DNA of 64,000 nucleotides from Phycisphaerales bacterium (GCA_027451365.1 DAIDJN010000058.1:32001-96000); one strand, 5' to 3'; counted from the first letter of the stretch, positions 4,668 through 64,000 are shown. Notes: generated by a model from the letters alone, not told the origin. Numbers and translations: made by a program.

Positions 4668-5011
4668 GTAATGCTCCTTAAAAAAAATAAGCCGGGCCTT
4701 TTTGCGCCAAACCAAAAGCCCGTTGTTTGTATTATAGCACGCGAAAGGCGTGGATGGCGTTTTTTTGCAAAAGATAAAAATTTACGCGGATCGGAAATCA
4801 ATGGCAGATTTATTAAGGATCGCAGCGTCTCGGAATTTTTGCCAGGAAGGTGTTTCACACATAACTGACTTGTGGAATAGCGGAAGTGCGAGTCATGCTG
4901 GAAGGCGGCTTTTATATTAGCGGTCTGGCATGATAAATCGGCCAGTTGCCCTGTCATTTATGGCATGTACGCGCCTATGATGTAAAAGAATAATTATGGA
5001 GACCTTTCATC

Positions 5012-10084: not shown

Positions 10085-11263
10085 ATGGGTAATCGTAGCT
10101 CCATTGTCATGTCTTTGCGGTGGTCGGAAGCGCTTAAAGCGATTGAACGCGGTGCCTGCCGCGTGGACCGGACAGGGCGCTGGCCCGCCAAAAATATCCG
10201 CATACTGCATGCCGCCGGGGCTTCGGGCTGGTCGATTCCGCGCCGCTTCGGCGGGCGTCCGCTTAATGCCTTGGCTCTGCATCGACGGTATGAACAGCTT
10301 GCCGCGGTCTGTCTGGCATCCGCTCTGATACTGACGCAACGGGATGCGGCCCTGGAATTTCTTGCCTGCGTTACAGGAAACGCCCTGGCCGAAAAGCTTC
10401 AACGACGGGCTGCGGCCAATCGGATTTTCCTCACCATCGGAATAGCTCAACTGACCACTTCCGGTCAGCATGGTTTGCCGCGTGTGACGGCCCGGCGACG
10501 TTCCGGTGGCTGGATTATTTCCGGGGTTATACCGTGGGCCACCGGCGCGCATCATGCGGACTGGATTGTTGCAGGGGCGACTGTCGCTGATGACGATTGC
10601 AAATCGATGGGCATATCGGGCGGACAACTGCTTTTTCTGCTTTCCACCCGGCGGCGCGGTGTTACCGTTTTGCCAACCGATAAACTTTCCACGCTTAACG
10701 CCACGGACACCGCGGCCGTCCGGCTGAAGGGCGTAAGGGTTCTGGATGAAGAAATTCTGGCCGGGCCGGACTCGAATGTGCTTTCCGTTCGCCAGAGGCA
10801 AAAACGTTTCAGTCTGAATACCTGTATACTTCCACTGGGTGTGGCGGGCGGTGCGCTGGCTATGGCAAGTGAACTTGCGGTGGGCCGGTCAGTGGAAAGC
10901 CGACGGGCGGTGGATCAATTGAATCGGAGGTTTGGCGAACTGCGATCCGCGGTTTACGCCGTTGGCATGGGGCGCCATAGTGCGGGGCCTGATTCAACAT
11001 CTCTGGCGGTGGAATCGGATTCGCGTCCGGCATCCGCATCAGATAAGACCGGTCTGCGGGCTGCGGCGAACGTGCTATGCAGTCAGGCGGCGCTGGCCGC
11101 ACTGGAACTGGCGAAGGGCCGGGGCCTGTCGTTGCACCATGCGGCCCAAAGGCGCGCTCGGGAAAGTCATTTCTTTTTTGTGTGGTCCAGCCCGCCCGCG
11201 GTGATTGACCAGACGCTCGCGATGCTGGCTGGAATAACCGGAACCAGTGACCAGCCATCATGA
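10085..11263 (+). CDS. Acyl-CoA dehydrogenase-like flavoprotein
   Basis: SIPRRFGG, GIAQLTTS, ISGVIPWATGA, AKGRG...H.AQRRARE; start uncertain. Confidence 0.75.
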   Translation: MGNRSSIVMSLRWSEALKAIERGACRVDRTGRWPAKNIRILHAAGASGWSIPRRFGGRPLNALALHRRYEQLAAVCLASALILTQRDAALEFLACVTGNALAEKLQRRAAANRIFLTIGIAQLTTSGQHGLPRVTARRRSGGWIISGVIPWATGAHHADWIVAGATVADDDCKSMGISGGQLLFLLSTRRRGVTVLPTDKLSTLNATDTAAVRLKGVRVLDEEILAGPDSNVLSVRQRQKRFSLNTCILPLGVAGGALAMASELAVGRSVESRRAVDQLNRRFGELRSAVYAVGMGRHSAGPDSTSLAVESDSRPASASDKTGLRAAANVLCSQAALAALELAKGRGLSLHHAAQRRARESHFFFVWSSPPAVIDQTLAMLAGITGTSDQPS

Positions 11264-51091: not shown

Positions 51092-52252
51092 GTGATATTG
51101 GAAAATCCGCTGCAAAAATGTCATGAACAGGCGGAGGCTTCCTTTTTGCCTTATGGCCCGCTGATTCAGATCGTTGAAAGTTTTGGTCAGCCGGAAATTG
51201 AATATGCCGCAATCCGTAAGGGAACCGGCCTGATGGATTCCCCGCACCGGGGGGTGCTTGAGATAACCGGTAAAGATCGGCTCGCATTTTTGAACAATCT
51301 TTTGACCAATGATGTCAAGTCACTGGTTCCCGGTTGCGGCTGCTATGCGTTCCTGCTGAACACCAAGGGCCGGATTACCGCAGATATATATGTGCTTAAT
51401 TTGCCGGACCGCACGCTGCTGGAACTTGATGCCCGGTTGACCGATCAAATTTGCGCATTCCTGAATCAGTATCTGTTCGCGGAAGATGTTCAAATCCAAA
51501 ACCGTTCCGCCGTTTTCCGGCGATTAACACTCTGCGGGCCGGCCAGCGCCCTGCTGCTGGCCCGGCTGACGCCGCCGGGGGGATTGTCGCTTTCCGATGG
51601 CCTGTTTACCGTTCGCGAGGGATTGCTGACTGCCGAGGGCAAAACTTTTGGGGTAACTGCGTTCAAGAACGACCTCTGTGGCGAACCGCAGTGGGATTTA
51701 CTGGTTCCCAATGAAGCCGCCCCGGTGCTTTGGGATTCGCTTCTGGAATTTGCCCAGCGTACCGAAGACCGGCCCGGATCAGAATTTAATCTGCGAGCCA
51801 TCGGCTGGTCGGCATTTAATATTGCACGGATTGAAGCCGGCACGCCGCTATTGGGTATCGACATTGGCGATCAGGCGCTTCCCCTTGAAACCTCGCACTG
51901 GTATGCCCGCGCCGTACATCCGCAAAAAGGATGTTATCTTGGCCAGGAAGTAGTGGCCCGCATGCATGTGCGGAACCTGTGTGCCCGGCGAATTGTGGGA
52001 TTGAAAATCAGTGGCCACGCCGTCCCCGTGGCCGGTGCCGAATTGCGTATTCCGGATAAAACTGTCGGTATGGTCACCAGCAGTTGCATGTCGCCTCTGC
52101 TGGGTAACACGCCCATCGCACTGGCCTATATGGAAAGTGCGCACAGCGTTGCGGGCCGCGAATTTGAAGTATATACCAGCGGCGGTAAAACGACTGCCAT
52201 AGTTGCGGACCTGCCGTTCGTGCGTGGCCGAGCGGCGATTGGCTCTCCATAA
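51092..52252 (+). CDS. ygfZ: YgfZ/GcvT-family folate-binding protein
   Basis: GKDRLAFLNNLLTND, KGRI, ARIEAG, KGCYLGQEVVAR signature. Confidence 0.88.
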   Translation: MILENPLQKCHEQAEASFLPYGPLIQIVESFGQPEIEYAAIRKGTGLMDSPHRGVLEITGKDRLAFLNNLLTNDVKSLVPGCGCYAFLLNTKGRITADIYVLNLPDRTLLELDARLTDQICAFLNQYLFAEDVQIQNRSAVFRRLTLCGPASALLLARLTPPGGLSLSDGLFTVREGLLTAEGKTFGVTAFKNDLCGEPQWDLLVPNEAAPVLWDSLLEFAQRTEDRPGSEFNLRAIGWSAFNIARIEAGTPLLGIDIGDQALPLETSHWYARAVHPQKGCYLGQEVVARMHVRNLCARRIVGLKISGHAVPVAGAELRIPDKTVGMVTSSCMSPLLGNTPIALAYMESAHSVAGREFEVYTSGGKTTAIVADLPFVRGRAAIGSP

Positions 52253-52274
52253 TTGACCCTGAAGGATTTCAACC

Positions 52275-52667
52275 ATGACTCAACCATTGCGCATTCTGGA
52301 TGTGGGCCAGTGCGGATTCGATCATTCCGCAATTGCTGATGTTGTGCACAAACAGACCGGCGCAATTGTCGAACAGGCTGGTTCCGCTGCGCAGGCCGTG
52401 GCAATTCTGGCTTGCCAATCCTACGACCTGGTGCTGATTAATCGCATTCTGGATGGCGACGGAACCTCAGGTGTCGATCTGATTGCCCAGTTAAAAACCA
52501 ATCCCAATTGCCCGCCGCTGATGATGGTCAGCAACTATCCGGACGCCCAGCGGGCGGCCGTAAAAGCCGGAGCGCTGGAAGGATTTGGAAAAAACGCCTT
52601 GTATCTTGCGAGCACCGCGAAAATTCTGCAGGCGGCTGTTGAACGAAAGACCGCATCCGGTGGTTGA
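52275..52667 (+). CDS. Single-domain receiver-like protein (atypical)
   Basis: ILDVGQCGFDH, YDLVLINRILD, MMVSNY, GA..GFGK; Asn at the usual phosphoacceptor Asp position. Confidence 0.75.
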   Translation: MTQPLRILDVGQCGFDHSAIADVVHKQTGAIVEQAGSAAQAVAILACQSYDLVLINRILDGDGTSGVDLIAQLKTNPNCPPLMMVSNYPDAQRAAVKAGALEGFGKNALYLASTAKILQAAVERKTASGG

Positions 52668-52689
52668 TTCACAACCTGCCGCGATCGGG

Positions 52690-53358
52690 CTAGTCAGGTA
52701 GACCGAATTTATAACGAAGAAGCTGCACTAAAAACATTTGACGGCCGAAAGACAGCCCGGACCCGAAGCGGGTATTAGAAGGTCCTTCGATGATAATGTT
52801 CGCATTGTTACTGCCGGGATACTGGAAATGAATACCCGATGTATACACGCGCGATGCTCCGGTAATCGTGATTTTCTTTTCCCAGCCCAGTTTGCCCACT
52901 CCGGCAAAAATAGTCAGGTCTTCGCCGCGGGCGGTTAATTCCACTTTGCCCGCCACGCACAGGATTGCAAAGCTCCAGAACAATATGGAACCAAGTAAAA
53001 ATGGAATCCCGAAAAGCGACATGACCAGGTCGAATTTGCCCGCAATAATTTGGCTGCCGTAAATGCCGCCAAGTGAACCACCCGACCAGACGCACATGAA
53101 CGGTATAAGAAAAAACGCCACGGGTGAACGTGTGGTTGCGCCGGCTGTCCAGCCGTCCATTGTCTCCCGGTACCAGCACCCTTTGGGCGGGTTGGTGGTC
53201 GGATCAAACCTCGGGGGTGATTTGGTTGCGGGCACCGCGCCGACCAATTCACTAAGTTGATAGGCATGGCTGCAAGCGCGGCAAAAGGCCACATTGTTCG
53301 CCACGTTCACGTCGGTATCACCCAAGGGTGCCCCGCAATTGGGACAAACCAGTTGCAA
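52690..53358 (-). CDS. Hypothetical membrane protein with N-terminal zinc ribbon
   Basis: CPNC...CRAC, two hydrophobic segments, TTG start with GGAG. Confidence 0.75.
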   Translation of the reverse strand: MQLVCPNCGAPLGDTDVNVANNVAFCRACSHAYQLSELVGAVPATKSPPRFDPTTNPPKGCWYRETMDGWTAGATTRSPVAFFLIPFMCVWSGGSLGGIYGSQIIAGKFDLVMSLFGIPFLLGSILFWSFAILCVAGKVELTARGEDLTIFAGVGKLGWEKKITITGASRVYTSGIHFQYPGSNNANIIIEGPSNTRFGSGLSFGRQMFLVQLLRYKFGLPD

Positions 53359-53390
53359 ACAGCAAACTCCGAAGGAATCGAATAAAGGAA

Positions 53391-53431
53391 TGCCACACCC
53401 AACACAATGAGGCCGCTGGGGATCGAACCCA
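53391..53431. repeat. Left att core (duplicated tRNA-Lys 3' 24 nt plus 17 nt of downstream sequence)
   Basis: TGCCACACCCAACACAATGAGGCCGCTGGGGATCGAACCCA, identical to 62073-62113. Confidence 0.97.
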
Positions 53432-53598
53432 CCACTCCCATAGCCTTATCATCGGGAAATACGCAAGGTTCCAAAGTTAGTGAGCCATCTGTGATACCAT
53501 TTGACCCGGATTTAGACGCCATAATCAAGTCATGGCCGACCCTGCCTGAACCGATCAGGCTGGCCATTGCGGCATTGGCCGGGACTGGTGCGAAATGA
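53407..53598 (+). CDS. Detached 3' segment of the integrase gene (alternative C-terminus restored on excision)
   Basis: Begins MRPLGIEP in the same frame as the integrase crossing the right att; continues ...DPDLDAIIKSWPTLPEPIRLAIAALAGTGAK. Confidence 0.8.
   Translation: MRPLGIEPTTPIALSSGNTQGSKVSEPSVIPFDPDLDAIIKSWPTLPEPIRLAIAALAGTGAK
53490..53501 (+). repeat. Putative integrase arm-type site
   Basis: TGTGATACCATT, identical to tandem copies at 61936-61959; degenerate copy immediately upstream. Confidence 0.75.
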
Positions 53599-53792
53599 GC
53601 AATACCAATTTACAAATTCGCAATGCCGACGATTTACGAAAATACTTCGCAAATGCGGACCCGAAAGACGTGGCGGCACTTTGGGAGGTTATTCGGGCTT
53701 GGCCGGCAATGCCGCCAGGTGTTAAGAAAGCGATTTTGTCGATTACATTGATTGATTGGGAGGCCGCGCGCAAGCTGGCGGCTAAAAAATAG
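53595..53792 (+). CDS. Small protein paralogous to the integrase alternative tail
   Basis: VIRAWPAMPPGVKKAILSI aligns with IIKSWPTLPEPIRLAIAAL; ATGA overlap with the preceding stop. Confidence 0.7.
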   Translation: MSNTNLQIRNADDLRKYFANADPKDVAALWEVIRAWPAMPPGVKKAILSITLIDWEAARKLAAKK

Positions 53793-53853
53793 GATCAAAT
53801 ATCGCGTTGCCACCGGCGATAACAGGTGGCATATCCGTGTTGGAGTGTTTTTT

Positions 53854-54084
53854 ATGGTTGCCAATGTTGAAAACTTTCTGCGAGCGGTTAAGCGTAACGG
53901 CTTTATGCTTTCGCCCGTGGTGCCGGGGTTGGCCAGCTTATCGCCGGTTGGATGGAAATGTGAGCCAGGCGATTTTTGCGTCCCTTATGTGATGGTGCGG
54001 CCAGCCGACCTTAAAACGCCAGAAGCTGTCATTCGCAAAATCCAATCCCGTTTTGCGAATCGCGAGGCATTAACCGCCGCGTGA
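53854..54084 (+). CDS. Small hypothetical protein
   Basis: GGAG upstream of ATG 53854; co-oriented with neighbours. Confidence 0.55.
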   Translation: MVANVENFLRAVKRNGFMLSPVVPGLASLSPVGWKCEPGDFCVPYVMVRPADLKTPEAVIRKIQSRFANREALTAA

Positions 54085-54177
54085 CATTACAAGGCCCATA
54101 GAAATGAAGCCTGGCGTTTTTTTTCTTCGCGTTGCGGAGGGGCGCCGGGCTTTTTTCCTTCTATACAAGGCGTATCC

Positions 54178-55104
54178 GTGAAGATTATTGGTGTAACGAT
54201 TGGTACAGGCGGCCAGTTTCCGGCGATGGCGGAATTGGCCGCAAAGCGGTTTGAGGCCGCAACCGGCCTTGAATGCCGGCTCTTAAAACCATCCGACTAT
54301 TTCCCGCGGGCAGGAAAACTTGAATCAATGTTAGCTCGCTATAAGACGTTTGAAGCGTTTCCTGACGCGGATGCCGTGGTCTACTTTGACGCCGATCTGG
54401 CCTTTGTCCGCAAATGGAACCCTGTTGAATTGTTTGCCGCAGAAAGTCGGCTGATGATGGTTGTTGACGGACATTGGGACGGTCTTGAGGCTGAAGCAAG
54501 AAAACTTGGGATGCCCTTGACGGACTACCATAACGCGGGCTTTCACCTGGCCAACCGTGAACATCACGCGGAATTGTTCCACCGGTTTTTGAAATGGTTT
54601 AATGAAATTCCCCGAATGGAATACGGCGATCAATCCGCGTTTAATCTTTTCCTGCAAATGACGGGCACGCCAGTTGCAGATTTGCCGGCAACGTATAATT
54701 TTTTTGCCCATGAATGGCCGAACGCGAAAGAGCAAATTGACCCGATGGGGGTTATTGGATGGCATTGCGCGGCGAATGAAAAGCCTTTATTCCTTGAAAT
54801 CGCTTCTTTGGGTGTAAGAGAGTGTTTTAAGCCGGATCCGGTCCCGGACGGTCTATGCAATCGCCGTTTTTGGTACAACTACGGCGGCGCATCTGACCGC
54901 ATCATGGTATTAAGCCCTGACGGGCGAATTGTCCATGGATGGGGCGGCTACGAGATGTTTTGGTGGATGAAAAATGGTGATCTGTTATTCTCTAACCATA
55001 AACGAAAAACGTGCAGTTTCGTTCGAGTAGGCGATGGATGGGCGGGCCACTGGTTGGTGGATTCCCTCCCGGCGTGCACACTAAAACCAGTCTTGCTGCC
55101 ATAA
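54178..55104 (+). CDS. GT-A fold glycosyltransferase (GT8-like), element cargo
   Basis: RYK, VYFDADL (DxD), YHNAGF, GDQSAFN, LPATYNF, WH. Confidence 0.8.
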   Translation: MKIIGVTIGTGGQFPAMAELAAKRFEAATGLECRLLKPSDYFPRAGKLESMLARYKTFEAFPDADAVVYFDADLAFVRKWNPVELFAAESRLMMVVDGHWDGLEAEARKLGMPLTDYHNAGFHLANREHHAELFHRFLKWFNEIPRMEYGDQSAFNLFLQMTGTPVADLPATYNFFAHEWPNAKEQIDPMGVIGWHCAANEKPLFLEIASLGVRECFKPDPVPDGLCNRRFWYNYGGASDRIMVLSPDGRIVHGWGGYEMFWWMKNGDLLFSNHKRKTCSFVRVGDGWAGHWLVDSLPACTLKPVLLP

Positions 55105-55114
55105 GGTGGTGCGA

Positions 55115-55768
55115 CTACCTTGAAACTTCAACCGTGAGGAAACCTGAATCGTTGGCGAGATTGCCGGTGTAGTTATACATTTGCATTTTAAGCCTGCCGT
55201 CTTGGCTTGCCCGCAGGTGTGCGTAGTCGCCTATTTTGAAGGGTTTGCCGTTTCCGATCTTGCCCTCAAGGTAGCCGTGAAAAATATGGTTCACAGGATC
55301 ATTCAATCCATCTGGTCCGCAGGCATACCGCAGATGCTTTCCCCAGGTGCTCCAACGTCCGCTGGCGCTGATCGTCACTGATTCGCCTTTCCGCAGGGAA
55401 ATTGTGGTCTGCCAGTTTTTTGTAGCATAGATGCGAAACTTCAATCCGTGAGCGATTTGGGGTTGTACGGCCGCGATCCATTTCTGTATCAGTACTGCGT
55501 CTTTCAAATTTCCGCGTTGCATGACGTGTTTTTCCGCAATCTTGAGCCGCGCGACTTCCTGGCGACGGGCCGCTGCGACGGCATCCTGATATTTCTGGCG
55601 GGCCACGCGGATCGCGATCCGGGCACGATTGATCGCGGCTAAAGCCGTGATGGAATTTGGCAATGGAAGCGGTGGCGGATTAACGGGCGATGTCCAGGCA
55701 TTCAGTATGGACGACAGGCAAACAACCGTGGTGAGTGAAACAACAACAACAATTCGAGCAAACTTCAT
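55115..55768 (-). CDS. Secreted protein with helical region and C-terminal PA-IL/LecA-like beta-sandwich
   Basis: Signal peptide; ATKNWQTT.I.L.KGE.VTISASGRW...GPDG...L.GKIG.G.PF.IG...G.L...N.G pattern. Confidence 0.6.
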   Translation of the reverse strand: MKFARIVVVVSLTTVVCLSSILNAWTSPVNPPPLPLPNSITALAAINRARIAIRVARQKYQDAVAAARRQEVARLKIAEKHVMQRGNLKDAVLIQKWIAAVQPQIAHGLKFRIYATKNWQTTISLRKGESVTISASGRWSTWGKHLRYACGPDGLNDPVNHIFHGYLEGKIGNGKPFKIGDYAHLRASQDGRLKMQMYNYTGNLANDSGFLTVEVSR

Positions 55769-55885
55769 GACTGGTTCTCCTTGATTCGCAGAATTCGCAC
55801 TGGCTAAAACCAATCGTATCACGCGCGGGCGCCGCGTGCAAAAGCGTTAAGGGCCGTGCGAAGCTAATTTTTGCGATATATAGGT

Positions 55886-56098
55886 ATGGAAGACCGTGTC
55901 CGCATAATCCTGTCATGCCCGCGAAGCCAGGGGGCGTTTATTCCGATTGAACCGGCTGCGCCGGAGCCGCCAGAGACGCCAGATTATTCCGATGATGAAC
56001 TGGAAATTTTAAGGCTCTCAACTCAAAGGCGTGCCGACGCCGGCGAACCATCCGCAATAACCCGCCGCATGGCCGATCTGGCTTATGCCGGCCAGTAA
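55886..56098 (+). CDS. Small hypothetical protein
   Basis: ORF MEDRVRII...; no recognisable motif; start approximate. Confidence 0.4.
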   Translation: MEDRVRIILSCPRSQGAFIPIEPAAPEPPETPDYSDDELEILRLSTQRRADAGEPSAITRRMADLAYAGQ

Positions 56099-56213
56099 AA
56101 CCAAGTCTAAAAACGCGCATGCGCGATTCTGCGATTGAATAGCGATTAACCAATGTAAGCCAACGCACAGTGCCTTGAATCGGCACCGCTGGCTTGTTTT
56201 GGAGAATCGAACC

Positions 56214-56414
56214 ATGGAACGCGAGGAACAGCCCGAACTTCAAACGCTTCTGACCCTTGAGCAATCCGCACAGGTCTTGCAGGTAAGCCTGCGGACGATT
56301 TGGAAGCTGATCTCTACGGGCGAACTCCCCAAGCCGTTGCGGATCGGCCATAGCCGCCGATTCCGGCGTGCCGATCTGGAAAACTATATTGAGACCCTTA
56401 CCGCGGCGCGTTGA
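56214..56414 (+). CDS. Excisionase/AlpA-like HTH protein
   Basis: LLTLEQSAQVLQVSLRTIWKLISTGELPKPLRIGHSRRF; GGAG RBS. Confidence 0.85.
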   Translation: MEREEQPELQTLLTLEQSAQVLQVSLRTIWKLISTGELPKPLRIGHSRRFRRADLENYIETLTAAR

Positions 56415-56664
56415 TTATTCTAAAAAAATAGGCCGTTGGCATCCGACAAAAAACACCAACGGCCATAAAAATCCGGAGGCCGCGAAGTTATGCGGTATCG
56501 GCCGCACACTTTTTTTGGGCCTCGTTTCAAGCGGACGCGCACCGGCACCTATCCGGCTGGGCGGTAAACGCTGCGTCTGGCGAAAACAGGAGCTATCGGC
56601 CTGGGTGGCTGCCGGATGCCCGACGCGGGACGAGTTTAAAAAACTGCAAAGTCTGAAAAAGTGA
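56368..56664 (+). CDS. Second AlpA-like HTH protein; start unclear, possibly 5'-damaged
   Basis: EAAKLCGIGRT.......GRAPAPIRLGG...WRKQELSAWVAAGCP; only in-frame start is a GTG inside the previous gene. Confidence 0.65.
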   Translation: MPIWKTILRPLPRRVDYSKKIGRWHPTKNTNGHKNPEAAKLCGIGRTLFLGLVSSGRAPAPIRLGGKRCVWRKQELSAWVAAGCPTRDEFKKLQSLKK

Positions 56665-56725
56665 TATTAAAAAAAAGGCCGCCAAGTGGACTAAACCTGA
56701 CGGCCTGAAAATTTAGGATAAAGCA

Positions 56726-58783
56726 ATGATACACATTCCTAATGCCACACACAAGTTGAAGGAATCGCTTTGTCTGATTCCGACCGAACTCAAAGAAATT
56801 CAGCAATGGGTTATGTGGCGAATAGTTGACGGGCGAAAAATTCCGTTCACCACCACCGGGCGCTCCGCTTCCTCAACCAAACCTAAAACGTGGGCCAGTT
56901 TTGATGCCGCGATTGCCTCCTATCGGTCTGGCGGATTTGCGGGCATTGGCTTTGTCTTTGCAAAGGATGATCCGTACTGCGGTATCGACCTTGACCATTG
57001 TATAAAACCGGATGGCACACTTGAAGCGTGGGCCGCGAAGATCATTCAAGACTTCGCAAGTTATGCGGAGGTGTCACCAAGTGGTACCGGCGTAAAGATT
57101 TTTATTCGTGGTAAGAAGCCCAGTGCTAAATGCCGCTTCGAGATTAACAAGGCCACCGGCCAGCATATCGAGATTTACGACAGTGGCCGGTATTTCACGG
57201 TCACGGGAAATCGCTGGGCGGATTGCCCATTGGTTATTTCCGATCGGCAACCGAAGCTTAATACTCTGTTCGCAGAATACTTTTCAGGGCAAGCGCCGCC
57301 AGTAACAAAGCCAGAATTACCACCCCTTACTGAGCATGTGAAAAATAATGCTTCCACACATGAGCGGTGCCACAGGTACTTGGACACGATTCCGGGGGCC
57401 ATTTCCGGGCAAGGTGGCCACAACCGGACATTGGAGGCCGCGGCAACATGCTTTCGTTTTGGGCTGTCCGAAAGCGACGCATGGAATCTACTGACCGAAT
57501 TCAATGAACGATGCCAACCCCCATGGAATGAAAGGGAACTCCGCCACAAGTTGGCTGACGGCGAAAAGCTTGTACGGGGCGCCGGCGAATTTGGAAAATT
57601 GCTAGATGGGCGGTCCGAACCAGTAGCCGCGGCACCGAGGCCCACAACGGCGGCGCCCGCAGCGGTTCCGAAAGCTCCCGCGTTGAAGTTTCTGGACGTT
57701 GCGAATTGCCGAAATTATTCCAAACCACAGGCGTGGGCGTTCAAGGGATGGATCCCATCGGGCCTTGTCACGGTTCTGGGCGCCCATGGCGGCACGGGAA
57801 AAAGCATGTTCAGCCTGATCGCGGCTATTTGCTTGGCGGCTGGTCATGAATTCCTTGGCCAACAATGTGAGCCAATAAAGGCGTGCTACTTCTCCGCTGA
57901 AGATGGTCCGGATATTCTTTATCCAAGGATGGCCGCGATCTGCGACGCCCTGGATGAAGACCCCGCAACGCTGGCTGACCGCCTGACGGTCATTGACGCC
58001 GAAAGCAACCCAGTCCTATTTGAGGAAGTCACAACCGGCAAAAGCGCGATGATCACCACGCCGACCTATGCGGCTCTGCTGGAACACATTCAGCAAACCG
58101 GCTGCAAGTTTGTGATCATTGACGGCGCTTCCGACACTTATGATGGTGAGGAAAACGCACGCCGGCAGGTGCGGGCATACATGCGAAGCCTGCGGATTCT
58201 GGCACAGGCAACAAATGCTGCAATCGTCCTACTGGCACACGTCCCAAAGACCAACACACGCGGCCAAAGCACGGAAAGTTATTCCGGTTCAACCGCCTGG
58301 CACAACAGCGCCCGGTCAAGGCTGGCGCTGGTTGTGGATGAATTTGCGCCCGGGATAATTGAACTCCGGCACGAAAAATGCAACGTGGGAAAACTTCAAT
58401 CCGCATTTCAATTCAAGTTTTCAGATAGCGGCATTTTATTACCGGTTGGCCAGTCCGGCGAGGTTAATTCCAACGCCGACAAACAGGCGATATTAAGAAT
58501 AATCATGGAATTTAACGCCCGCGGAGAGACCCTTTACGCCTCGACCGCGTGTGCGCAGAACGCATTCAAGGCAATGGCTGGCGAGCCTGGATTTCCAAAG
58601 AAAATGCGCAAGCCAGCATTCGATAGCCTGATGCGGTCCATGGCGAGAGAGGGTCTTATTCAAATAGAACAAATTCAAACCAAACAGCGGCGATTTGTGG
58701 ACGGATGGCGAATCGCAGAACTGGGTATTGCCGCGATAAATGTAGACCTTGCCACCGGCGAAGTTTTGGAGTCGCAGCCATGA
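56726..58783 (+). CDS. Primase-polymerase (NrS-1-like AEP) fused to a RepA/AAA_25-type helicase
   Basis: QWVMW, GIGFVF, GIDLDHC, EVSPSGTG, IEIY..GRYFTVTG; helical linker CQPPW..REL; GAHGGTGKS, SAED, IIDG, H, GSTAW. Confidence 0.88.
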   Translation: MIHIPNATHKLKESLCLIPTELKEIQQWVMWRIVDGRKIPFTTTGRSASSTKPKTWASFDAAIASYRSGGFAGIGFVFAKDDPYCGIDLDHCIKPDGTLEAWAAKIIQDFASYAEVSPSGTGVKIFIRGKKPSAKCRFEINKATGQHIEIYDSGRYFTVTGNRWADCPLVISDRQPKLNTLFAEYFSGQAPPVTKPELPPLTEHVKNNASTHERCHRYLDTIPGAISGQGGHNRTLEAAATCFRFGLSESDAWNLLTEFNERCQPPWNERELRHKLADGEKLVRGAGEFGKLLDGRSEPVAAAPRPTTAAPAAVPKAPALKFLDVANCRNYSKPQAWAFKGWIPSGLVTVLGAHGGTGKSMFSLIAAICLAAGHEFLGQQCEPIKACYFSAEDGPDILYPRMAAICDALDEDPATLADRLTVIDAESNPVLFEEVTTGKSAMITTPTYAALLEHIQQTGCKFVIIDGASDTYDGEENARRQVRAYMRSLRILAQATNAAIVLLAHVPKTNTRGQSTESYSGSTAWHNSARSRLALVVDEFAPGIIELRHEKCNVGKLQSAFQFKFSDSGILLPVGQSGEVNSNADKQAILRIIMEFNARGETLYASTACAQNAFKAMAGEPGFPKKMRKPAFDSLMRSMAREGLIQIEQIQTKQRRFVDGWRIAELGIAAINVDLATGEVLESQP

Positions 58784-58808
58784 CCCATAACACCGATTTA
58801 CAGGGTTT

Positions 58809-58895
58809 TGCGCGGAGTGCGCGGACGTTGCGCGGACGCATGTTTGCACGGTCTGCACAAAAAGGTGTGGATGTGGTGTCCCGCTTCTGCGCGGA
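58809..58895 (+). repeat. Iteron-like TGCGCGGA repeats, putative replication origin
   Basis: Exact copies at 58809, 58818, 58829, 58888; variant TGCACGGT at 58845; directly after the primase-helicase gene. Confidence 0.6.
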
Positions 58896-59048
58896 CACAC
58901 ACAGCCTATGGGGTATGGGGGACGTCCGCGCGGTCGAAAATCAGGCTTTGATCGGCGAGCTGTTTTGTGAGGAAAATAAGGCGACGCCACCGGCCTTAAA
59001 CATGTGGTATTTTTCAAACGCCGCTTAGGCGGCAGAATAGGAACTCAA

Positions 59049-59477
59049 ATGAGTGTTTCAGAGTTACTGGCGTCCAAACGCGAAGCCGCACAGAAGCCGG
59101 CACGCGGTCGATACTGGACCATGATCCGGAAGGTGGCCGGGAAGGCGGACGTAACCACGGCTGAAGCGGCCGCACTGGCCAACGCGGCCGGTGAAGCTGG
59201 TATTCCGGTTGACCGCATTGATGGCGACATTGCCCGCGCCCGGTCCGTGGCGGACGCGAAAGCTTTTATCGCGGCCAATGATAGCATTTCGCAAAAGCAG
59301 ATTGCCCATGGCGAAAAGCTTCTGGAAATGCAAAACACCGCGGAACAGGCACAGATTGCCTTGGAGAATTTCCGCATTCCGTGGTCACTGGAAAATCAGA
59401 GGCTGACGGCGATTGCCAACCGCCTGACCGAATTTGAAGGCATGATCGCCATGTTCGAAGCGGAAATAACCGCATAA
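59049..59477 (+). CDS. Hypothetical alpha-helical protein
   Basis: AGGA RBS; Ala/Glu-rich, coiled-coil-like C-terminal half. Confidence 0.65.
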   Translation: MSVSELLASKREAAQKPARGRYWTMIRKVAGKADVTTAEAAALANAAGEAGIPVDRIDGDIARARSVADAKAFIAANDSISQKQIAHGEKLLEMQNTAEQAQIALENFRIPWSLENQRLTAIANRLTEFEGMIAMFEAEITA

Positions 59478-59490
59478 TTTTCTGGTGTCG

Positions 59491-59552
59491 CCGGCAGGTG
59501 GCAAAGGGTTCTGTTGCGGCTGATTCTGCAACGCCGCCTGCCGGTTTTTTTT
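59491..59552 (+). terminator. Terminator-like stem with structured loop and T8 tail
   Basis: CCGGCAGGTGGC pairs with GCCGCCTGCCGG (one G-U), followed by TTTTTTTT. Confidence 0.6.
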
Positions 59553-59566
59553 AAGGAAATGCAAAA

Positions 59567-59932
59567 ATGAATCTTGGATTTTTAGATTTTGTCGGGGAGC
59601 TACGCCGGTATGGCATTCAAATCCGGTGCCGTGGCACGAGTTTGCAATATCGGGCCGACCGACGCCGCCAACTGTGCCCCTTGGATATGCTGTACTCGCT
59701 TTTCTGGCGATCCCACGATATTCACGCGGAGATTAGCGGTAATGGGCAATTCTACCGGGAAAGCCCTGATCCGGATGGTTGGCATTCTGTTTCGCCTGAA
59801 AGGTGGCACCGGGAGCTAATTGAACGCGGCATAGGGTGCCTGGCGACATTGATAAACTCGGAACTTGGCCGCCGCAACGCCAGCCACGCTGGCCGCCAGA
59901 CTGGAGCAAGCGGGGCGTCCTGCAAAAGTTAG
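59567..59932 (+). CDS. Hypothetical protein, N-terminus resembles TubC_N-like small domains of mobile elements
   Basis: ELRRYGIQIRCRGTSLQYRA pattern; AAGGA RBS; domain similarity is weak. Confidence 0.55.
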   Translation: MNLGFLDFVGELRRYGIQIRCRGTSLQYRADRRRQLCPLDMLYSLFWRSHDIHAEISGNGQFYRESPDPDGWHSVSPERWHRELIERGIGCLATLINSELGRRNASHAGRQTGASGASCKS

Positions 59933-60021
59933 CCCCTTGGCCGACTACCCCGCCCAGGACGGTCAAACGGGCCTGTATGGGCGTCTAATAGCGTCATTTT
60001 TGAGTAAAAAGGGTGTAAACC

Positions 60022-60354
60022 ATGGGTAGACCGCAAAAACAGATTGACGCCAGGGCCGTTGGCGCATTGGCAATGGCGGGGCTGTCTAACAGGCAAATTT
60101 CCGAAATTTATGGCATTGGTGAAGCCACAATCCGCCGACGTTTTGGCGCGATTGTCAAAGAAAACAGGCTGGCAATGCGGATTAACCTGCGGCAAAAGCA
60201 AATCGAAACCGCCATGGCTGGCAATACGGCCATGCTGATATGGCTTGGCAAGCAATACCTTGGCCAAACCGATCGGCCTGCGGAAACATTCCCTGCAACG
60301 GTTCAGGTTGTGCACCCGGTCGGGTTTAACTTCAGGAAGGTTGGCCGCAAATGA
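60022..60354 (+). CDS. Terminase small subunit-like protein
   Basis: MGRP, HTH (GLSNRQISEIYGIGEATIRRR), A..GNTAMLIWLGKQYLGQTD motif that I recognise from phage TerS-like proteins. Confidence 0.7.
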   Translation: MGRPQKQIDARAVGALAMAGLSNRQISEIYGIGEATIRRRFGAIVKENRLAMRINLRQKQIETAMAGNTAMLIWLGKQYLGQTDRPAETFPATVQVVHPVGFNFRKVGRK

Positions 60355-60572
60355 TATTATTCCGGTGCACCAAATGCCGCCAACGATTGCATGATGCGGT
60401 CTGGTACTTTTGCCGGGACTGCCAACGGTCATTGTGTGGATGGTGTGCATACACGATTGACGGGCCGCGTGGTGAGACTGCATTTTGCGAAAACTGCTGC
60501 CGGCGATTGGTGGATAACCTGACCAGTGAATTAAACCGCCGCGAGGAACTTGACAAAGCGGCCGCAGTGTAG
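60351..60572 (+). CDS. Small protein with four CxxC pairs (zinc-finger-like)
   Basis: CTKC, CRDC, CGWC, CENC; ATGA overlap with terS-like gene. Confidence 0.65.
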   Translation: MILFRCTKCRQRLHDAVWYFCRDCQRSLCGWCAYTIDGPRGETAFCENCCRRLVDNLTSELNRREELDKAAAV

Positions 60573-60578
60573 GATAAT
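60550..60578 (+). promoter_or_regulatory. sigma70-type promoter for the HTH-integrase unit
   Basis: TTGACA-N17-GATAAT; ATG lies 7 nt after the -10. Confidence 0.7.
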
Positions 60579-60585
60579 AAACTAT

Positions 60586-60780
60586 ATGAAAAACATTGAA
60601 CAGGTTTTGAAGCAGGCAATAAAGGATACCGGCCTGACGCATTATGCCATTTCCAAAGCCACTGGCGTACAAGCCCGGTCACTGGATCGGTTCATGGATG
60701 GAACCCAAAGCCTGCGGCTGGATAAGGCCGCACTGCTGGCAATGCACCTGAATCTTGAACTTAAACGCAAAGGACGGTGA
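60586..60780 (+). CDS. XRE/Cro-like HTH regulator
   Basis: LKQAIKDTGLTHYAISKATGVQARSLDRFMDG...LRLDKA..LA..LNLEL. Confidence 0.82.
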   Translation: MKNIEQVLKQAIKDTGLTHYAISKATGVQARSLDRFMDGTQSLRLDKAALLAMHLNLELKRKGR

Positions 60781-60783
60781 ACC

Positions 60784-62151
60784 ATGCCAAACGTATTCAA
60801 AAGGCGTATCTGGATTGATGCCAATGGCGTCCAGTGTTCCAAAACAACACCGGGGGCCAAGGCTAAGATTTTACCTGACTGGTATTTCCGTGTGATGACT
60901 TCAACGGGCCGCAAACTTGTGCGAGGATATTCTGACAAGGGCGCGACTGTCGCCAAACTCAATGATATGGTCAAACGCGAGGCCCGTGGTGAACAGGGGC
61001 TTGTCAATCCATTTGAATCGCACAATAAAGCACCGCTGTTGGATCACGTCCGGCAGTATGTTGCCGAACTGGCCGCCACGGGCCATGACACGGCCAATAA
61101 CCGCATTGTGGAACTGCGGCTTAATAAAATGGTGTCCGCGTGCGGCTGGAACAGGTTGGTGGATGTTTCCGCGGCAACATTCAGTAAGTTTCGGGACACG
61201 GGCGACATGCTTAAAGCCGCGCCAAAGACCCGCAATGATTATCACCAGACAGCGCGTCAATTCTGCCGCTGGTGTGTTCGCAATGGCCGGATGGCTATTG
61301 ACCCGTTTCAAAGTCTGGCCACCGTCAAAAGCAATGGCGACGTTCGCCGGCAACGCCGGGCAATGACTGATCAGGAAGTCCAGCGACTGCTGACCGTGGC
61401 ACCAGAGCCGCGTAGAACCGTTTACCAAACCGCGCTGCTGACCGGCTTACGCCGTGCCGAACTTGGCCAGTTGCGGCTTGATGATATTCACCTTGACGCA
61501 CCAAAGCCGTTCCTGACAGCCAGAGCCAGCACCACCAAAAACGGCAAGGCTGCGGTTATCTTCCTCCGCGACGATCTTGTTTCAGCCTTGCGACGGTTGC
61601 CGGCACGGACAGATGGGCTGCTGTTCCGCGTTCCAAAAATTGAGACGTTCTATAACGATTTGCGGGCCGCTGGGATTGACCGGACAGACAGCAAGGGCCG
61701 GATACTTGATTTTCACTCCATTCGGCATACGCTTGCGACCAACCTTGGCCGGGCTGGCGTGTCCATCAGAACCGCAATGGAAGTGATGCGGCATTCCGAT
61801 GCCCGCCTGACCACTAAGACCTATACCGATGCCAGCCAGTTGCCCACCATAGACGCGATTGAGTCTTTGCCACGTTGGGAAGTCCATCAGCAGGTGCAGC
61901 AAGCCGTTGCCACCGGCACGGATGGCCAAAAAGTTTGTGATACCATTTGTGATACCATTTACCCCGCACAGTTAGGCGTTTGTACGCATTCAGACGCACG
62001 GTTGACAGTAAATGCCACTGATGACCAAACCACTGTAATACAAGGGGAAAACCTGCAAAACAAGCTGTTTCCTGCCACACCCAACACAATGAGGCCGCTG
62101 GGGATCGAACCCAGGACCCACAGATTAAAAGTCTGTTGCTCTACCAGCTGA
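60784..62151 (+). CDS. int: Tyrosine integrase (integrated form, reads through att into antisense tRNA)
   Basis: TGLRRAE, TTKNG, FHSIRHT, MRH, TYT catalytic set; ORF crosses the att core. Confidence 0.95.
   Translation: MPNVFKRRIWIDANGVQCSKTTPGAKAKILPDWYFRVMTSTGRKLVRGYSDKGATVAKLNDMVKREARGEQGLVNPFESHNKAPLLDHVRQYVAELAATGHDTANNRIVELRLNKMVSACGWNRLVDVSAATFSKFRDTGDMLKAAPKTRNDYHQTARQFCRWCVRNGRMAIDPFQSLATVKSNGDVRRQRRAMTDQEVQRLLTVAPEPRRTVYQTALLTGLRRAELGQLRLDDIHLDAPKPFLTARASTTKNGKAAVIFLRDDLVSALRRLPARTDGLLFRVPKIETFYNDLRAAGIDRTDSKGRILDFHSIRHTLATNLGRAGVSIRTAMEVMRHSDARLTTKTYTDASQLPTIDAIESLPRWEVHQQVQQAVATGTDGQKVCDTICDTIYPAQLGVCTHSDARLTVNATDDQTTVIQGENLQNKLFPATPNTMRPLGIEPRTHRLKVCCSTS
61936..61959 (+). repeat. 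Tandem putative arm-type sites inside the integrase ORF
   Basis: TGTGATACCATT x2 (encodes CDTICDTI). Confidence 0.75.
62073..62113. repeat. Right att core
   Basis: 41-bp identity with 53391-53431; overlaps tRNA T-arm and acceptor stem. Confidence 0.97.
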
Positions 62152-62162
62152 GCTACGGCCTC
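62090..62162 (-). tRNA. tRNA-Lys (anticodon UUU), CCA not encoded
   Basis: GAGGCCG/CGGCCTC acceptor stem, TAGCTCAG-TGGTAGAGC D arm, ACAGA-CTTTTAA-TCTGT anticodon arm, GGTTCGATCC T loop. Confidence 0.97.
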
Positions 62163-62413
62163 AGAGATTGGGGCACCCGATTGAATTCCCAATCGAGAGC
62201 AACGTATTTTACGCTTTAAGCGGTGATTGGCAAGACGGCGGCAAAAAAGCCAATTTTTCGACTCCATCCGGCGGCTAAAAGCTGCCCGCCGGTCCGGGCC
62301 GGGGATTGCCGGACTTGACGAACGGTTAATCTCCTACTATTCTTATCGGAATAGTTCCAAAGGGTTGGAGATGTGCCCAGCCCCTTGGACTGTCACCCGG
62401 CAGGAGCTACACT

Positions 62414-63373
62414 TTGCAGAATATGCAGGAATCATCCAAAACCGCCATTATCTCCGGTCGTGGCAAGAGTGACGCCCCCCTTACCCATTTGCGCGAACTG
62501 GAAGCCGAGAGTATTCATATCATTCGAGAAGTAGTTGCCGAATTCGCCAATCCGGTCATGCTGTTTTCCAGCGGCAAGGATTCCTCTGTCATGCTTCATC
62601 TGGCGCGGAAGGCTTTTTTCCCCGCCAAGGTTCCCTTTCCATTCCTGCACATTGACACCACCTGGGACTTTCAGGAAGTGTATCGGTTTCGGGATTCCCA
62701 GGTTGCGGAATTTGACCTGAAATTGCTGGTGAACACCAATTGGGACGCTATTAAAGCCGGAATCAATCCCTTTGATTCGGGCAGTGTGAAATACACCTAT
62801 AACATGAATCTGCAGGGGTTGCTGCAGGCTCTGCGGCAGCATCAGTTTGACGCGGCCTTCGGCGGCGCCCGCCGCGAAGAGGAAAAATCCCGCGCCAAGG
62901 AACGCATCTTCTCCTTCCGCGACCGGCATTATCAGTGGGATCCGAAAAATCAACGGCCTGAAATGTGGAATCTGTACAACGCCCGCATTAACAAAGGGGA
63001 TTCCATTCGGGTGTTTCCGCTTTCCAACTGGACAGAGCTGGATATATGGCAATATATTCATTTTGAAAAAATCCCCATTTGTCCGCTCTATTTTGCGGCT
63101 CCGCGGCCCGTCGTACGTCGCGATCCGCAGCTTATTTACGTAAATGACGACCGCTATCCTCTGCACGAAGGCGAAAAGCCGGAAATCAAAATGGTTCGCT
63201 TCCGTACCCTGGGCTGTTATCCACTGACCGGGGCGATTGAATCTCGGGCTGATACCCTGGAAAAAATAATTGAAGAAATGCTGTTGTTCCGCCAGTCGGA
63301 ACGCTCGGGCCGCGCCATCGACCATGACGAACAGGGGTCCATGGAGGCGAAAAAGCGTGAGGGATATTTCTAA
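62414..63373 (+). CDS. cysD: Sulfate adenylyltransferase subunit 2
   Basis: [58 protein letters not shown]. Confidence 0.96.
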
Positions 63374-63451
63374 GCCGTCCGAAGGCCTCACTTGCGGCGA
63401 CGGCAGCCGCCTGGTCCGACATTCGCATTGAACACAAGGAAAGCCCATACC

Positions 63452-64000
63452 ATGACCGCCATTGAACAGGCTCTGAACAACGAAGATATTCACAGTTATC
63501 TGGAGCGCAACCAGCGTAAGGAAATGCTGCGCTTTTTAACCTGCGGCAGCGTGGATGACGGAAAAAGCACGCTTATCGGGCGACTGTTGCATGACACCAA
63601 AATGATCTATGAAGACCAGCTTGCCGCCATCCGCCGTGACAGCGTGAAACACGGCACCACCGGCGGCACCGTGGACCTGGCCCTGCTTACCGACGGCCTT
63701 AAGGCCGAACGGGAACAGGGCATCACCATTGATGTCGCCTATCGCTATTTTTCTACCGACAAACGCAAATTCATAATCGCCGATACGCCCGGTCATGAGC
63801 AATATACCCGTAATATGGCAACCGGGGCTTCCACCTGTCAGTTGGCAATTATTCTAGTCGATGCTCGGCATGGCGTTCTTGCCCAAACGCGCCGCCACAG
63901 CTTTATTTGCTCGCTTCTGGGCATTTCACATCTGGTGGTGGCCATTAACAAAATGGACCTGATGAATTTTTCCGAATTGCGCTTTAATGAAATTAAGGCC
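63452..64000 (+). CDS. cysN: Sulfate adenylyltransferase subunit 1 (CysN or CysNC), 3'-truncated by window edge
   Basis: [60 protein letters not shown] (translated by eye; absent from ORF track). Confidence 0.95.

Follow-up and report, generated by a model that had tools for sequence, protein, structure and literature searches.

A 64,000-nt stretch of Phycisphaerales bacterium DNA (GCA_027451365.1 DAIDJN010000058.1:32001-96000; called here the window, whose positions serve as coordinates throughout) carries an integrative element that is seated in the 3′ end of a tRNA-Lys(UUU) gene and is bounded by an exact 41-bp repeat, the core of its attachment (att) sites. The integrase gene (int) of this element encodes two alternative 3′ ends, and which of them is in use is set by the recombination state. 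Recombination rewrites the C-terminus of Int itself, since the core is followed by the tRNA gene in antisense orientation when the element is integrated, and by the P′ arm of attP and a segment encoding a two-helix hairpin when the element is a circle. As judged by genome comparison, a large Int clade in the Planctomycetota, Verrucomicrobiota and their relatives normally has an int frame that runs across att, and the arrangement is under selection in the clade to which the window Int belongs. Taken together, it is probable that this is an 8.7-kb element whose Int C-terminus is swapped upon recombination, that both Int isoforms are made, and that the hairpin favors an integration-competent Int.

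The integrase gene and its two 3′ ends

The int frame has no stop codon before attR (Table 1); it passes through the core and ends antisense within tRNA-Lys. At the other end of the element, attL is made up of the 3′ 25 nt of tRNA-Lys (53407-53431) and the 16 nt found downstream of the tRNA (53391-53406), and the tail open reading frame (ORF) that starts there opens with the same eight residues that Int reads across the core; it corresponds to Int residues 436-498 in the circular form. The first-pass annotation of this DNA had listed the int ORF, the att repeats, the left-end ORF and the tRNA-Lys gene, all of which are present where it placed them, and had proposed that the att core lies within the int frame so that integration exchanges the C-terminus. 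A scripted join of the element ends bears this out, giving an Int of 498 amino acids (aa) as opposed to the native 455, with 443 residues common to the two. Translation in the excised circle should thus proceed from the core through the P′ arm into the hairpin to give the 498-aa protein, and in the integrated state it should end after 12 antisense-tRNA residues to give the 455-aa protein.

Int is a tyrosine recombinase, with a match to PF00589 over residues 194-351 (E=1.1e-18; 68.1 bits, the cutoff being 27.1). Residues R223, K252, H311, R314, H337 and Y347 are invariant in a 56-sequence alignment and all lie before residue 443, so the earlier claim that the catalytic residues belong to the common part holds. 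The protein therefore has the crossover core inside its reading frame and a catalytic domain that is intact after integration, as in the phage Mx8 type discussed below. Its closest homolog among the matches listed is 64% identical over 100% of its length.

The direct repeat that defines the att pair (53391-53440 and 62073-62122, spacing 8682) is 92% identical over 50 nt, its first 41 nt being identical, and it is the single long direct repeat returned by the repeat finder from positions 52000-64000. The tRNA-Lys(ttt) gene is the sole tRNA called by ARAGORN in the window. A clean empty attB was not found in a same-genus genome (a 2,962-bp stretch in which no tRNA was called); the left flank is conserved there, at 76% over ~1.2 kb, and is followed by nothing more than a core-like match of 23 nt.

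The part of Int between its catalytic domain and the core doubles as the P arm of attP; in the structural model of a fused homolog, P0089 (see below), the matching stretch has low confidence. A 13-nt sequence occurs in three exact copies in the 64 kb, all of them adjoining the att core, on one side or the other; when up to two mismatches are allowed there are six matches, against a mean of 1.29 in shuffled sequences, and none of 100 shuffles reaches six. The placement of these repeats on both sides of the core fits candidate arm-type Int-binding sites. The natural fused proteins have short peptide repeats in tandem to either side of the core, within the linker of low model confidence, and these are the arm repeats in translated form.

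Nearly all of the element genes lie on the + strand, so the circular form would make one unidirectional array that runs from int through the core, the tail and its paralog and onward. In the circle, int, the tail and the 65-aa paralog would constitute one transcription unit, which integration would break. A consensus scan found no sigma-70-like site between the host flank and the tail ORF.

Recurrence in relatives and conservation of the hairpin

A protein search with Int returned 325 proteins at E≤0.001 among 8,000 candidates scored, and 120 of these are listed; 86 of the 120 have a T-arm-antisense-like peptide within their last 45 residues. A tail profile (A4) that was built from genome loci only finds a tail at the C-end of seven of the 120 listed homologs, and these are natural fused Ints. 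Six of them score at E≤2.2e-8 and one, P0110, is weak (E=0.0021). The order in these seven proteins is T-arm-like peptide, linker and then tail motif.

Related loci were collected from 80 genomic positions which, by their labels, are mainly from Planctomycetota/Phycisphaerae, Verrucomicrobiota, Lentisphaerae and Kiritimatiellales. In 65 of these 80 loci, ~80-160 further codons follow the catalytic Tyr before the int frame closes, and the frame overlaps an antisense tRNA, with 16 tRNA types represented; ARAGORN placed the tRNA on the same strand as int in 3 of the 80 and called no tRNA in 12. A second att copy was sought within ~10 kb or less upstream of int, and a repeat shared by the int 3′ end and the upstream DNA was found at 18 loci (20 when the window and a second element of the same genome are included). 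In 15 of the 20, with nine tRNA species as targets, joining the ends yields an uninterrupted frame that has the tail motif at its end. A repeat and a tail are both present at 18 loci, and in 15 of them the frame is continuous, without a stop (binomial tail at p=1/3 of 1.9e-5, the loci being partly related). For the Int clade of the window, the arrangement passes the test that the first-pass annotation had set for it, namely that relatives should carry the tail in frame with a tRNA-integrated int on the far side of the element. Matches to the tail profile at E≤1e-4 number 20 among 27,121 ORFs; they come from 18 loci, the window and the second element, and every one lies on the int strand and upstream of int.

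The second element lies on another contig of the same genome (L013, 3042-9282). Its Int is 34% identical to the window Int, it occupies a tRNA-Ala(cgc) gene with an 86-nt exact repeat, and its 498-aa int frame runs antisense through the tRNA and the core; an ORF at its far end continues the int frame into the tail motif. This element also has a 22-nt exact repeat on either side of its core, and the same peptide is encoded at both places.

No close relative of the Int is present in the phage collection, the best match there being 26% identical. When IMG/VR was scanned with the Int alignment, 25 loci came up, two of them with tail matches: in L097 the tail is in frame and a 45-nt repeat covers the 5′ part of the tRNA, and in L105 the tail is situated ~1.1 kb past a distant int. 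Scanning IMG/VR with a tail alignment gave three loci, and in the stretches fetched none of them has an Int that belongs to this family. The tRNA called by ARAGORN shares its strand with int in L097, as in L078, L079 and L087, so the int frame passes through it in the sense direction. This sense-tRNA subgroup comprises three loci labeled Sedimentisphaerales or Pirellulales (L078, L079 and L087) in addition to the IMG/VR contig.

The conserved part of the tail is the hairpin; the terminal residues vary in both length and sequence. Pairs drawn from 19 tails (36 columns) have a nucleotide identity of 0.42 at the first, 0.58 at the second and 0.30 at the third codon position, and the invariant Leu is specified by five different codons. 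This codon-position pattern and the variety of Leu codons indicate selection on the protein, as opposed to conservation of the DNA. Further information on the frame came from a metagenome scan that used the alignment of a different, high-scoring tail subgroup and returned 80 loci. A T-loop-antisense DNA motif is present within 330 nt upstream of the hairpin in 41 of these 80 tail-selected loci, and in 40 of the 41 no stop interrupts the tail frame between motif and hairpin, compared with 16 and 6 of the 41 for the two remaining frames. A tail frame that nearly always runs back through the tRNA-derived core is as expected if translation enters it from the int side.

The same observations bear on the explanation that the frame past the catalytic domain is open by an accident of the att DNA and is either not translated or without meaning. 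Such an accident would suit a linker that is poorly conserved, is modeled as disordered and holds DNA-level repeats, but it would hardly leave a frame open for ~80-160 codons in 65 of the 80 genome loci, a hairpin with a coding-type codon-position pattern, or a tail frame that is so much more often open than the other two. This explanation is already disfavored and almost certainly wrong.

AlphaFold2 was run on the natural fused homolog P0089 with a 70-row alignment, and the model has a mean predicted local distance difference test (pLDDT) score of 84.7. Most of the body, which comprises an N-terminal β domain, the core-binding domain and the catalytic domain, scores above 90; residues 377-458, the linker, stay below 50 and so are modeled as disordered; and the two terminal helices (461-472 and 475-488) are at 88-95. 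The best Foldseek match to this model is full-length λ Int (1z1b_A, E=1.5e-10), and the Brujita Int structure 5vfz is also among the matches. The window Int is probably a λ-Int-like, heterobivalent recombinase: the P0089 model has the three-domain fold of the λ Int body, with its N-terminal β domain, and the three 13-nt copies that flank the window core on both arms are candidate arm-type sites. The λ int gene, however, ends before attP, whereas in the window the candidate arm sites and the core lie in the coding frame.

The tail was also modeled alone, as a 39-aa segment with 19 rows, and forms a two-helix hairpin with helices at 10-21 and 24-36 and pLDDT of 94-96; the helical nature predicted for the tail in the first-pass annotation is thus seen in both models. 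High tail confidence in the full-length model was considered as a sign of docking onto the body of Int and was rejected: the isolated tail scores equally high, so docking does not follow from that confidence.

At E≤0.001 the tail profile matches 11,730 representative proteins, 175 of them at E≤1e-10. The best 150 of the 11,730 are all 42-223 aa in length, and a T-arm-antisense-like peptide precedes the motif in 40 of these 150, compared with 171 of 9,226 control ORFs (1.9%); most of the best 150 short matches can be read as attL-side ORFs. When longer proteins were searched with a tail profile built from seven proteins, the matches listed were those seven only. No Pfam or PHROG family matches the tail at curated cutoff. 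A protein atlas search with the 65-aa paralog gave a best score of 0.77, which is at an uninformative level, and among the 82 loci scanned only the window has such a second hairpin copy.

Among database relatives of the tail are some, such as P0121, P0123 and P0215, in which one ORF holds two to four copies of the motif in tandem. The 223-aa P0215 has a hydrophobic N-terminal stretch ending in Cys and four tail motifs, and with these four copies the module also occurs as a repeat outside the int context.

Fused module, separate gene and known systems

Several observations weigh against an Int and hairpin that are one protein with an exchangeable end. In none of the 80 tail-selected metagenome loci are Int and tail in one open frame: the tail ORF is closed upstream without an Int on its strand in 68, it reaches the contig edge in 7, and a same-strand Int lies in another ORF in 5. 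Four of these five contigs (L146, L158, L167 and L175) have int directly ahead of the tail but in a different frame, the tail frame overlapping the int 3′ end by 67-191 nt, and in two of them, L158 and L175, whose Ints fall in a distant clade, the int stop codon comes shortly before the core, on its 5′ side. These mismatches could be due to assembly indels, hybrid tandem junctions, separate genes or something else. In addition, the hairpin folds confidently by itself in the AlphaFold2 model, and it occurs in the window as a separate overlapping ORF (53595..53792). Among the genome loci, L022 and L075 are in frame only if crossover takes place 3′ of an indel in the repeat; the int extension of L044 is frameshifted and reaches a stop 98 nt before the repeat; L055, with a repeat ~560 bp upstream of int and no tail, looks like an int-only remnant; and L060 has a masked stretch and stops, so that its joined frame is not evaluable. 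Several of the in-frame loci are mutually related, and 47 of the 65 loci with an int-tRNA overlap have no second att copy within ~10 kb, so the in-frame count rests on a minority of loci.

The confident lone fold and the stand-alone paralog together imply that fusion may not be needed for hairpin function, and the four out-of-frame contigs, again with the paralog, that the module may also work as a separate polypeptide. They raise the alternative that the hairpin is a small accessory gene of its own, for example for a recombination cofactor or regulator, which lies across the core, is co-transcribed with int only in the circle and acts in trans, the fusion in the clade of the window being secondary and without effect. 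This would explain why all four of the contigs with int directly ahead of the tail are out of frame, two of them with int stopping 5′ of the core, and it agrees with the shortness of all of the best 150 profile matches, the ATGA start-stop overlap of the window paralog and the confident hairpin that the lone tail forms in the model. It does not agree with the 15 of 18 repeat-and-tail loci that are in frame without a stop at nine tRNA species, nor with the seven of 120 listed homologs that are called as single fused proteins, and a gene starting just before the hairpin would have no need of the frame that, in 40 of 41 cases, extends without a stop back across the core. Short ORFs, moreover, are expected at attL ends in any event, and the T-arm-like peptide is far more frequent in the short matches than in control ORFs. 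On balance an accessory gene acting in trans is unlikely.

Directionality control in tyrosine integrases is usually credited to separate excisionases. With an Int C-terminus that is swapped on recombination, both isoforms would, on the reading favored here, be translated, and the hairpin, held on a long flexible tether, would serve as a protein-protein module for oligomerization or partner binding. Circle-made and prophage-made Int may then differ in assembly, partner binding or stability by virtue of the hairpin, which would favor the integration-competent state of the circle-made protein; the prophage-made protein, lacking it, would be biased toward staying put or toward HTH_17-dependent excision, in line with what has been reported for Mx8. 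The hairpin may in this way act as the switch of directionality, stability or partner binding that the first-pass annotation had proposed. A bolder proposal is that the hairpin is a widespread, so far undescribed recombination-state sensor that is always located just across the att core, is joined to Int only in the circle and in that state sets the direction of recombination, being fused to Int here and perhaps co-translated or frameshifted elsewhere. This generalization is tentative and rather doubtful; if it is true, the thousands of protein clusters involved would make self-rewriting integrases a general design and not an Mx8 oddity.

The swapped C-terminus might, on the other hand, govern protein stability and not chemistry, one isoform carrying a degradation signal in the manner of the mycobacteriophages. 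In phages BPs and Brujita, attP lies inside the repressor gene, free and integrated forms of the protein differ, and integration removes a C-terminal degradation tag, Int being tagged as well (PMC3694055); the presence of the Brujita Int among the Foldseek matches would be in line with such a mechanism. The two systems are alike in that recombination at an attP in coding sequence yields different protein forms, but theirs concerns a repressor and a degradation tag, whereas the window has int itself and a folded two-helix module. Since the hairpin is the conserved part of the tail and the last residues are variable, and since the integrated ending is set by whichever tRNA is read antisense and so differs across 16 targets, control of stability alone is quite improbable.

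Precedents for att within int, which the first-pass annotation had named for SSV and Mx8, are indeed in print (PMC4383910, PMC6070905; PMC7253208). The SSV1-type archaeal integrases have att inside the int ORF (PMC7253208), as the window int does, but their genes are split in two by integration, whereas the window gene stays whole. A suicidal reading of the SSV type was accordingly rejected for the window, where the integrated int is unsplit, keeps every domain and has all of its catalytic residues ahead of the core.

The closest precedent is the integrase of myxophage Mx8 (IntP/IntX), which is IntP in the phage and takes an altered form in the prophage. Its attP is inside int, and integration at a tRNA-type site gives the gene a new 3′ end without inactivating it (PMC6070905, PMC4383910); both systems have the crossover core inside the int frame and acquire a new C-terminus upon integration. 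A T-arm-like peptide is present in Mx8 Int too, followed by 112 further residues (counted on its sequence). The Mx8 tail is, however, about twice as long as that of the window, and the window trait is common to a clade across the Planctomycetes-Verrucomicrobia-Chlamydiae (PVC) phyla and ends in a short conserved hairpin. BLASTP found no significant similarity between Mx8 Int and the window Int (best E 1.3), and homology between the two tails was rejected, the tail profile giving no match to Mx8 Int at any threshold. The window system thus appears, from these comparisons, to be analogous to Mx8 and not its sequence relative in the tail.

This kind of system is known from one phage, Mx8, and a limited literature search found no description of the arrangement in Planctomycetota or Verrucomicrobiota. 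What is new is its breadth, a conserved hairpin matched by no Pfam or PHROG family, a linker that doubles as attP, and the existence of fused and apparently separate forms. Recombination here edits the gene of the very enzyme that performs it, and the edit adds or removes a conserved folded module; a protein linker of roughly 100 residues, modeled as disordered, has a dual coding role in that it also supplies the attP arms. What was a curiosity of Mx8 would become a general rule across an entire clade of elements, some of them labeled Akkermansia. For annotation, thousands of short hypothetical proteins near tRNA fragments would be displaced integrase ends, and recognizing them would aid the calling of island boundaries.

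Other features of the element and its surroundings

The features of the element are collected in Table 1. No virion genes were recognized among the scanned ORFs of the 8,682-bp element. It encodes several small helix-turn-helix (HTH) proteins, as well as two HTH_17/AlpA-like candidate excisionases from overlapping genes; the PF12728 matches of these two are at E=5.4e-13 for 56175..56414 and, below the curated cutoff, at E=1.1e-4 for 56368..56664.

Table 1. Positions of the element, its att sites, int, the tail and other features in the window
Feature	Position	Strand	Basis or remark
Integrative element, 8,682 bp	53432..62113	+	Bounded by att repeats; ORF and domain scan
attL, left 41-bp att core copy	53391..53431	.	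Repeat finder
Tail ORF, 63 aa: core-derived residues, linker, conserved module	53407..53598	+	Tail profile, 57 bits
Third exact 13-nt repeat, P′ side of core, within tail ORF	53490..53502	+	Repeat search
Two-helix hairpin module, consensus DxxLxxVIxAWPxLPxxxKxAILAIV	53506..53586	+	Alignment, AlphaFold2, codon pattern
Stand-alone hairpin paralog, 65 aa	53595..53792	+	ATG overlaps tail ORF stop (ATGA); tail profile, 63 bits
Two overlapping small HTH_17 / AlpA-like genes, candidate excisionases	56175..56414 and 56368..56664	+	Pfam PF12728
Replication-type protein, 685 aa, AAA_25 ATPase with weak BT4734-like N-terminal match	56726..58783	+	PF13481, E=8.5e-33
Promoter-like site upstream of int (TTGACA, 17 nt, GATAAT), 11/12 matches	60550..60578	+	Consensus match only
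int, integrated state, 455 aa, tyrosine recombinase	60784..62151	+	Last 12 residues are the antisense tRNA reading
Post-catalytic Int extension, also P arm of attP	61837..62072	+	Alignment consensus; poorly conserved except short TGTD-like motif
Two tandem 13-nt repeats, candidate arm-type Int-binding sites in P arm	61936..61960	+	Inside coding sequence
attR, right 41-bp att core copy	62073..62113	.	Inside int frame; overlaps 3′ part of intact tRNA-Lys
tRNA-Lys(ttt), UUU, integration target	62089-62163	-	ARAGORN; convergent with int, overlapped by int frame
Promoter-like site near tRNA-Lys, 10/12 matches	62233-62206	-	Consensus match only

In the related locus L044, 176 nt at the left end (4669-4843) match the right-end int 3′ extension (10947-11123) at 81% identity. 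The left copy is intact into the tail and the right one is frameshifted, and this may be left over from a tandem or an earlier element.

Cargo-like genes lie within the window element at 54178-55822. One encodes a GT8-family glycosyltransferase (PF01501, E=2.8e-9), and the product of another, on the opposite strand, is 235 aa long and weakly matches a PA-IL-like lectin (E=0.0063, below cutoff). The right flank of the integration site (62414-64000) is occupied by ordinary host genes, the first for a PAPS_reduct protein of the sulfate-assimilation type (E=6.1e-50) and the next a GTPase-like ORF that runs off the window.

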